Source: Eledone cirrhosa
Lineage: Eukaryota
Direction: 5' to 3'
Length of the DNA: 64,000 nucleotides
Assembly (NCBI GenBank): GCA_964016885.1
Contig: OZ024740.1
Span: 190,154,001 to 190,218,000 of the forward strand
How positions within the stretch are numbered: the first letter of the stretch is position 1; the number at the start of each line of letters is the position of its first letter. Made by a program: the position numbers and the translations under genes. The notes under the pieces are model-generated. The model was not told the origin of the DNA. It did no database searches and saw only the letters and a list, made by a program, of their open reading frames with translations. Positions 43,012 through 44,789 of this stretch are shown here, piece by piece.

Positions 43012-43268
43012 ATGTATATATACATACATATATATATATATATATATATATATATATATTATATATATATATATATATATATATATTATATATATATATA
43101 TATATATATATATATATATATATATATATATATATATATATGTGAAGATAAACACAGAATATTCGAAAATATTCCGTATGTTTATAATAAACATTTTGAA
43201 GACCTAATCGCTATAGAATAGAATACGTCACGTATTACAATTTGAGATTCTCGATAAAAGCAAGGGAA

Positions 43269-43311
43269 GTAACCTACGCGTTTCATTCTTATTAGAAATC
43301 TTCAGGATTAC
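43269..43311 (-). ncRNA. Type I hammerhead ribozyme (312-bp unit, inverted arm)
   Basis: Reverse complement reads GTAATC-CTGAAGA-tTTCTaataAGAAt-GAAA-CGCG-TA-GGTTAC. Confidence 0.85.
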
Positions 43312-43758
43312 ATATCCAATGCTTTTATCGAGAATGACACAGCTAGAGACTTATAGAATACTTAGCTGTGTACAGGAACTGGTTTGAAAGAGCGGTTGTC
43401 GGTCCGGCAGAAATTAGAATTTGGATTTAATGCTCTGAAATAGCGATATATATGTGAAGATAAACACAGAATATTCGAAAATATTCCGTATGTTTATAAT
43501 AAACATTTTGAAGACCTAATCGCTATAGAATAGAATACGTCACGTAGCGATTAGGTCTTCAAAATGTTTATTATAAACATACGGAATATTTTCGAATATT
43601 CTGTGTTTATCTTCACATATATATCGCTATTTCAGAGTATTAAATCCAAATTCTAATTTCTGCCGGACCGACAACCGCTCTTTCAAACCAGTTCCTGTAC
43701 ACAGCTAAGTATTCTATAAGTCTCTAGCTGTGTCATTCTCGATAAACGCATTGGATAT

Positions 43759-43801
43759 GTAATCCTGAAGATTTCTAATAAGAATGAAACGCGTAGGTTA
43801 C
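43759..43801 (+). ncRNA. Type I hammerhead ribozyme (312-bp unit 1)
   Basis: Stem I GTAATC/GGTTAC, core CTGAAGA and GAAA, palindromic stem III ACGCGT. Predicted cleavage after GUA at 43795. Confidence 0.88.
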
Positions 43802-44070
43802 TTCCCTTGCTTTTATCGAGAATCTCAAATTGTAATACGTGACGTATTCTATTCTATAGCGATTAGGTCTTCAAAATGTTTATTATAAACATACGGAATA
43901 TTTTCGAATATTCTGTGTTTATCTTCACATATATATCGCTATTTCAGAGCAGTAAATCCAAATTCTAATTCCTGGCGGACCGACAACCGCTCTTTCAAAC
44001 CAGTTCCTGTACACAGCTAAGTATTCTATAAGTCTCTAGCTGTGTCATTCTCGATAAAAGCATTGGATAT

Positions 44071-44113
44071 GTAATCCTGAAGATTTCTAATAAGAATGAA
44101 ACGGGTAGGTTAC
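44071..44113 (+). ncRNA. Type I hammerhead ribozyme (312-bp unit 2, stem III palindrome mutated)
   Basis: Same motif but GAAACGGGTA. Confidence 0.8.
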
Positions 44114-44382
44114 TTCCCTTGCTTTTATCGAGAAACTCAAATTGTAATACGTGACGTATTCTATTCTATAGCGATTAGGTCTTCAAAATGTTTATTATAA
44201 ACATACGGAACATTTTCGAATATACTGTGTTTATCTTCACATATATATCGCTATTTCAGAGCATTAAATCCAAATTCTAATTTCTGCCGGACCGACAACC
44301 GCTCTTTCAAACCAGTTCCTGTACACAGCTAAGTATTCTATAAGTCTCTAGCTGTGTCATTCTCGATAAAAGCATTGGATAT

Positions 44383-44425
44383 GTAATCCTGAAGATTTCT
44401 AATAAGAATGAAACGCGTAGGTTAC
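44383..44425 (+). ncRNA. Type I hammerhead ribozyme (312-bp unit 3)
   Basis: Same motif as 43759. Predicted cleavage after 44419. Confidence 0.88.
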
Positions 44426-44789
44426 TTCCCTTGCTTTTATCGAGAATCTCAAATTGTAATACGTGACGTATTCTATTCTATAGCGATTAGGTCTACAAAA
44501 TGTTTATTATAAACATGCGGAATATTTTCGAATATTCTGTGTTTATCTTCACATATATATCGCTATTTCAGAGCATTAAATCCAAAATATATATATATAT
44601 ATATATATATATATATATATATATATATATATATATATATATATATATATATATGTGTGTGTGTTCTGTGTGTGTGTGTGTATGTGTGTGTGTGTGTGTG
44701 TGTGTGTATGTGTGTGTGTCGGATGCAAGCTAAGATGCTTCCACAGGCGATATGCCGGTTGAGCACACTATGCCCTTACAGAGCAGTGT

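Follow-up and report, generated by a model that had tools for sequence, protein, structure and literature searches.

A dispersed candidate retrozyme family in Eledone cirrhosa whose insertions resemble those of Penelope-like elements

The array and its predicted ribozymes

Between two (TA)n tracts of the Eledone cirrhosa genome lies a head-to-head array of a 312-bp unit (43141-44586 of the window, by which I mean the whole 64,000-nucleotide stretch of DNA analysed), with 1.3 units inverted and 3.3 direct, about 4.6 in all (Table 1). Self-comparison confirmed this layout, which an initial annotation made from the letters alone had proposed, and the hairpins named there were located in the places given for them. 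Host genes were not recognised within the window, and a frame search over the array found neither an open frame of at least 150 codons nor an RT plus GIY-YIG frame. At the outer end of the inverted arm, about monomer position 135-141 (numbered, as throughout, on predicted monomer 2, 44108-44419), an AT run of the unit itself blends into the target, and a target-site duplication is unreadable within the (TA)n at the array ends.

Table 1. Features of the array and other elements of the window
Feature	Positions	Strand	Remarks
(TA)n target tract, left	43015-43140	none	
Inverted arm, 406 bp, 1.3 units	43141-43546	minus	outer end is the 'short' 3' end
Type I hammerhead of inverted arm, including stem I	43269-43311	minus	predicted cleavage after 43275
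Head-to-head arm junction	43545-43546	none	2-nt overlap; monomer positions 41 and 62
Direct arm, 1042 bp, 3.3 units	43545-44586	plus	period 312, 97% matches; ends outwards in the 'long' 3' end at monomer position 167
Hammerhead 1	43759-43801	plus	predicted cleavage after 43795
Predicted 312-nt monomer 1, from one cleavage site to the next	43796-44107	plus	
Hammerhead 2	44071-44113	plus	predicted cleavage after 44107; position 44104 breaks the stem III palindrome
Predicted 312-nt monomer 2	44108-44419	plus	34% G+C
Intact ribozyme domain	44359-44447	plus	16-bp helix 44359-44374/44432-44447, 3-bp stem, internal loop, hammerhead 3
Hammerhead 3	44383-44425	plus	predicted cleavage after 44419
Tail of about 30 nt between short and long end sites	44555-44586	plus	at this array end only
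(TA)n target tract, right	44587-44654	none	
Many broken LINE-type fragments	2100-27750 and 53900-56080		RVT_1 and Exo_endo_phos matches for two
Broken Penelope-like element (PLE) copy	30700-32460	minus	RT and GIY-YIG motifs by eye
Broken PLE copy	33260-37030	plus	RT and GIY-YIG motifs by eye; partial duplicate upstream
Non-coding element, hammerhead-like cores, in (TA)n	51190-51840		87% identical two-armed relatives at locus L180
Non-coding element, hammerhead-like cores, in (TA)n	51918-52127		inverted
Non-coding element, hammerhead-like cores, in (TA)n	52230-53240		inverted
Truncated head-to-head Neptune-like PLE end in (TA)n	60820-61378		each arm with a hammerhead-like motif; about 50 nt between short and long ends; copy at L213 has a 1257-codon frame
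Loose hammerhead-like core	63654	minus	pairing flanks

The consensus CUGANGA...GAAA...UH is present in all four hammerhead cores (starting at +43765, +44077, +44389 and -43305), and the three direct-arm cleavage positions of the initial annotation were reproduced as predictions; cleavage there would release two 312-nt monomers. With a 6-bp helix I, 4 bp in helix II on top of a U-U mismatch, and a helix III of one pair and the CGCG loop, the predicted motif has by sequence the canonical metazoan type I layout, described as having 6 bp, 4 bp and 1-2 bp with a palindromic loop and as requiring a dimer (PMC4209133), and its activity is a prediction. The core thus stands in each unit as annotated, but the CGCG palindrome is found in only three of the four (the second direct unit has G at 44104) and stem II opens with the U-U mismatch; similarly, the 16-bp extension of stem I is present but perfect in only two of the four domains, with mismatches at 43747 and 44135. 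The predicted dimer helix of the second core is weakened (-5.9 vs -9.5 kcal/mol). As to a possible tertiary contact between loops 1 and 2, there is a 3-nt bulge 6 bp away from the core, and loop 2 is rich in A/U.

The predicted fold of the circular monomer was better than those of 100 out of 100 shuffles (z -4.1) and the reverse complement did likewise (z -4.6), so that the fold alone does not show the relevant strand, which the ribozyme does; the 94-nt ribozyme domains folded better than 200 of 200 shuffles (z -5.6 to -6.1). A hammerhead was absent among the 54 Rfam matches at E<=1, the best of which, MIR5380, was rejected as the inversion hairpin and fell under its cut-off. When the first 900 nt were folded as read-through RNA, the inverted arm paired over 382 of its 406 nt with the direct arm, which left none of the 31 nt of the first core free. 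Because the palindrome of ribozyme 2 is broken and ribozyme 1 would be buried in such a transcript, this locus may be a poor producer of monomers, and possibly more product than source; read-through cleavage at all three sites, as first annotated, is doubtful with the first core buried and the dimer helix of the second weakened. In a study of Xenopus retrozymes, eight of nine predicted dimers remained uncleaved in vitro and one was cleaved (bioRxiv 10.64898/2026.07.22.740005), which advises caution with ribozymes known only as sequences.

The array had also been called young, a term that holds only in a relative sense, since 11 differences occur within the locus in 1417 bases covered more than once (0.78%), while 58 loci average 0.29%, and the array is older than the family average. 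No contig from four sequencing runs of unstated kind spans it. One of these runs, X2, which bears a second organism label, yielded a single 342-nt contig (the unit plus 30 nt) that matches window 43716-44057 with 8 differences, and had no depth on the neighbouring repeat at 42900-43008; this is the length expected from a closed loop in a 31-mer assembly, whether tandem DNA or a circle, and serves as a lead only.

The family and its insertion anatomy

A monomer search of the 3.0-Gb genome returned 663 candidates, of which 40 were scored, and the 43-nt ribozyme has 943 exact matches (control 0). The long end running into TA was matched 1234 times, 620 and 614 by strand, a lower bound that puts the insertions at a minimum of about 1,200; a narrower pattern for the short end gave only 362 matches because it misses the main subfamily. 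PLE-like RT candidates numbered 13880 and 7288, and the retrozyme family is dispersed and multicopy alongside PLEs in one genome. Exact ribozyme matches are unequal by strand (319 vs 624), an asymmetry that stems at least partly from a one-strand satellite on C14 (G000:C14:25199427-25260000, loci L091-L097). This satellite extends over at least 60 kb as runs of 0.5-25 units with TA-rich spacers about 85 and 425 bp long between them, and the 113 monomers in the 70 kb examined comprise 41 distinct ones, with only 2 of the many haplotypes in the family. Long arrays of 28-31 units exist besides this block, and older long arrays carry periodic variant patterns; some older loci, including the C14 block as a secondary satellite, have undergone later expansion at the DNA level. 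Sister families have units of 313-320 nt and other hammerheads, several carrying U3-A8 instead of C3-G8, and hold the tail region in common (about 145 nt around the tail at 71-79% in loci L015, L043, L039 and L183-L212); their end pattern gave 1484 forward matches. At L068, a third short family fragment lies beside TTAGGG-like repeats.

Across 128 loci (58 found by a unit or ribozyme match, 11 taken for length and 59 for a long end in TA), the arrays stop at one of two fixed internal sites, separated by about 30 nt, and each outer end is a 3' end in ribozyme sense: the short one at about monomer position 135-141 and the long one at about 158-177, mostly 166-172. Two-armed loci number 102 and one-armed loci 26. 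Wherever both ends of a two-armed locus lie on these sites, one is short and the other long (87/87, with 48 short/long and 39 long/short), the remaining two-armed loci being 13 with an array incomplete in the sequence examined and 2 with an off-site end; the same pairing was found in 44/44 cases within the subset of 58 loci not chosen by an end. TA follows 206 of the 219 on-site ends, a count inflated by the 59/128 loci selected for a long end in TA. The arms meet mostly with 0-6 nt of overlap, 136 of 174 arms are longer than one unit, and 194 inner ends spread evenly round the unit (chi-square p 0.26), with 3 near the cleavage site against 3.1 expected; a pile-up of inner ends at that site, first hinted by split BLAST matches, was gone on exact extension. 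The circularly permuted ends of the initial annotation are thus borne out for the inner ends, while the outer ends are fixed.

By analogy, this anatomy matches the inverted arm and one-sided tail of PLEs, in which one arm is inverted and 5'-truncated and a tail of 30-40 bp often occurs at a single end (PMC8557442), and the Penelope-type mobilisation that had been proposed for the window array is supported by it. A purified Poseidon PLE protein has been reported to start reverse transcription from two internal RNA sites that bound the tail, to cut AT-rich DNA and to extend both strands, with the start site alike between strands (PMC11167929). The strict pairing of one short with one long end points instead to one start site per strand, unlike that in vitro study, and the rule bears on how the PLE tail and inverted arm form, which was left unresolved in vitro.

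A helper sharing sequence with the unit was not found among two Neptune-like families and an older PLE family matching window 36000-36299, each search having covered the best 150 of thousands of candidates and, for Neptune-like family 2, one copy. The two Neptune-like PLEs, with open frames of 1216 and 1257 codons in the same genome, are likewise inserted head-to-head in (TA)n and have one short and one long end, the end sites lying 50-60 nt apart vs 30 in the retrozyme; they have no DNA similarity to the unit, and one of the two families has a hammerhead in its terminal repeat. The clade name rests on motifs judged by eye against a published description (PMC8557442), and Pfam and PDB returned no significant match for the Neptune-like frame. 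Loci L171-L182 hold a young 4.15-kb Neptune-like PLE with frames of about 1200 codons and no Pfam match; its copies lie in (TA)n both in tandem and head-to-head, and its hammerhead-like motif has no clear helix I. At L205:24-1524, a Neptune-like 3' end of the type seen at window 60820-61378 (GIY-YIG, ribozyme, long tail) is joined without TA to a sister retrozyme array. The hybrid may have arisen by a template switch, in which case it would identify the helper, or by a deletion between neighbouring elements, and that both of its ends are long ends favours the deletion; the 23 sister-family loci are all non-coding at the tail except this one.

Clonality, ribozyme structure and the template

In a set of 59 loci with at least three full units (503 units), 395 units equal the majority unit of their own locus and 21 loci are fully identical, with up to 12 units, while 34 distinct majority units occur among the 59. 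The majority unit is common to both arms in 29 of 38 loci (chance 0.04), the arm majorities of the other 9 differing by 1-3 changes, and the mean difference is 0.65 nt within loci vs 7.6 nt between them (40 loci). Rare locus-fixed alleles span both arms in 13 of 17 cases, one of them in 18 copies, and none of the 8 within-locus indels (340 units) lies at the cleavage junction. Over 97 two-armed loci, 4 minor variants are present in both arms yet unfixed and 2 are confined to one whole arm, so some templates would have been mixed or multimeric. In a parent-daughter comparison that sampled about a tenth of the family, no variant unit but one exactly matched the rare majority monomer of another locus, and a match for the fixed variant of L056 was absent from the loci compared. 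RNA editing was considered from an A-to-G excess among rare fixed alleles and rejected (5 vs 1, p 0.22, not significant); single-unit variants lean the opposite way.

Selection on the ribozyme was tested with 117 loci, 11 older arrays being dropped. In the wider test, defined after data inspection, changes that fall in the core or disrupt a pair (ribozyme stems and long helix) make up 2 of 48 locus-fixed changes; among single-unit variants they number 36 of 216 (p 0.015, Fisher test, one-sided), and the core-only test is not significant (0/48 vs 8/216, p 0.20). Both damaging fixed cases lie at position 2, where haplotypes with a 1-nt insertion in stem I shift the alignment. No fixed change falls at the 16 core and stem III positions and position 7 varies freely; the fixed changes are wobble pairs, loop changes, position 7, U-U to A-U and one two-sided compensatory pair. 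These patterns suggest that the ribozyme fold may be needed for propagation, in contrast to PLEs in vitro, where insertion did not require the ribozyme and mainly uncleaved RNA served as substrate (PMC11167929).

These loci form a dispersed family with fixed ends, a (TA)n target and clonal arrays, and very probably arose by PLE-type integration, with strand cuts and internal starts. Given such integration, the template was likely a circular RNA: a single circle copied repeatedly from two primers directly explains the clonality, the arms and the clean junctions. For the rolling-circle origin put forward in the initial annotation, the clonality of the arrays, the even spread of inner ends and the lack of indels at the cleavage junction offer indirect support, short of proof. 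My preferred reading of the whole, which I hold to be reasonably probable, is a non-autonomous, non-coding retrozyme that borrows the RT and GIY-YIG endonuclease of a (TA)n-targeting PLE and copies RNA circles. If it behaves like known type I hammerheads, multimeric sense transcripts would self-cleave via dimeric ribozymes and the 310-312-nt monomers would be ligated into circles; the PLE enzyme would cut both strands of a (TA)n tract, reverse transcription would start inside the RNA past the cleavage site, at about 135-141 nt for one strand and about 166-172 nt for the other, each cDNA would run a variable number of rounds on the circle, and the far ends of the two cDNAs would be joined via 0-6 nt of microhomology into a head-to-head array. 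The more specific proposal of a retroviroid-like cycle, in which one ribozyme-made circle gives rise to each insertion by rolling-circle copying in two directions, PLE-primed at one fixed site per cut strand, with the circles under selection for ribozyme structure, stands at about even chances; if true, it would lend genomic support to the PLE-plus-circle route proposed for animal retrozymes and would suggest that PLE start sites are assigned one per target strand.

It is unlikely, though a serious consideration, that PLE-type integration instead used linear, uncleaved multimeric transcripts of young homogeneous arrays, with the ribozyme minor or serving only in end processing. Fixed outer ends, even inner ends and clean junctions would fit equally well; a transcript of a homogeneous parent would also yield clonal daughters, possible source arrays exist (the 28-31-unit arrays and the 60-kb C14 block), 4 minor variants are common to both arms, one of them, in L121, equidistant from both ends, and uncleaved RNA served, as noted, as the chief substrate in vitro (PMC11167929). 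However, new variants in such a parent would be copied as mosaics and not fix across a whole array, as 13 of the 17 rare alleles have done across both arms with 34 majority units in 59 loci, and the C14 block, with its TA-rich spacers, its 41 distinct forms in 113 monomers and its 2 haplotypes of many, argues against this source; per-locus clonality is a route to test circle against linear template by sequence alone. An enzyme that copied linear ribozyme-cut monomers, jumping repeatedly from the 5' end to the 3' end of that monomer or a similar one without a covalent circle, would likewise yield clonal multi-unit arms and would need an active ribozyme, in keeping with the selection signal. Template jumps are usually imprecise, however, and with no excess of inner ends at the cleavage site and no junction indels (0/8) this account is improbable.

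Nor is it at all probable that short PLE-end fragments inserted and then expanded in place as minisatellites through tandem amplification of DNA, a route put forward in the discussion section of a 2026 preprint (bioRxiv 10.64898/2026.07.22.740005); the periodic variants in older long arrays and the C14 block as a secondary satellite fit such growth, but it needs a pre-existing tandem and would not homogenise opposite arms, whereas most arms exceed one unit, in both orientations and with outer ends fixed and inner ends random, and young loci hold up to 12 identical units across both arms. Inverted repeats in (TA)n are hard to assemble, and an assembly or fold-back artefact had been raised for the window array, yet this is exceedingly improbable: a fold-back read would exactly mirror one arm, while inner breakpoints and fixed outer ends differ between arms in 87 loci on many contigs with locus-specific haplotypes, and the genome-wide dispersal of the copies itself speaks against an artefact.

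Comparison with known retrozymes and Penelope-like elements

Judged by its sequence, the window array fits the non-LTR retrozymes, the initial annotation having called it a candidate retrozyme, and represents a new sequence family of an already described class. Like the metazoan non-LTR retrozymes of Acropora, Mytilus and axolotl (PMC7229834) and of Xenopus and others (bioRxiv 10.64898/2026.07.22.740005), it has tandem units (150-450 bp there) with a type I hammerhead in each, is below 50% G+C, non-coding and without LTR parts, and has a strongly self-paired predicted circle and PLEs in the same genome. The class calls for a hammerhead in at least two consecutive units, and the direct arm has three consecutive cores. 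Target-site duplications of this class, when present, are described as longer than 4 bp (PMC7229834; bioRxiv 10.64898/2026.07.22.740005). Expression and circles have been demonstrated for known non-LTR retrozymes, whereas the present family is known here from genomic sequence. Among the axolotl ribozymes, HHR_Amex1 likewise has a one-pair helix III with a palindromic tetraloop and HHR_Amex2 likewise a U-U mismatch at the base of helix II, and both need a dimer (PMC7229834); the window motif, of predicted activity, unites both weak features, while in some family haplotypes a Watson-Crick pair replaces the U-U.

PLE mobilisation with rolling-circle copying has already been proposed (PMC7229834; bioRxiv 10.64898/2026.07.22.740005; PMC7761336). 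A 2020 review noted that animal retrozyme repeats show no helper-identifying motif (PMC7761336), and the 2026 preprint links retrozymes to PLEs by homology and leaves the mechanism open (bioRxiv 10.64898/2026.07.22.740005). Head-to-head arms, a one-sided tail and a (TA)n target go unmentioned in the searched main texts of PMC7229834 and the preprint, 'inverted' and 'microsatellite' occurring nowhere in the main text of the former and 'tail' nowhere in that of the latter; a literature search found no paper describing a PLE footprint for retrozymes, which may be in print elsewhere. The mobility of animal retrozymes is an open question, and here the insertions themselves bear the PLE footprint, with the 312-nt unit and its mapped start sites offering a ready minimal substrate.

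Non-autonomous Chlamys elements such as MRC1 are likewise non-coding PLE passengers with multicopy head-to-tail insertions, but they resemble an autonomous family at the 3' end (PMC8557442), unlike the present family, for which the helper search gave no sequence link, and Naiad/Chlamys are described as without canonical hammerheads (PMC8557442). Compared with autonomous EN+ PLEs (Poseidon PAc, Neptune, Naiad), the retrozyme has no RT or endonuclease frame, a unit of only 312 bp, as many as 12 or more identical units in an insertion, and helices canonical in size, unlike the minimal PLE hammerhead form. It nevertheless shares with them the AT-rich or (TA)n target, the partial tandems, the inverted truncated arm, the 30-40-nt tail at one end and the two internal start sites downstream of the hammerhead (PMC11167929; PMC8557442).
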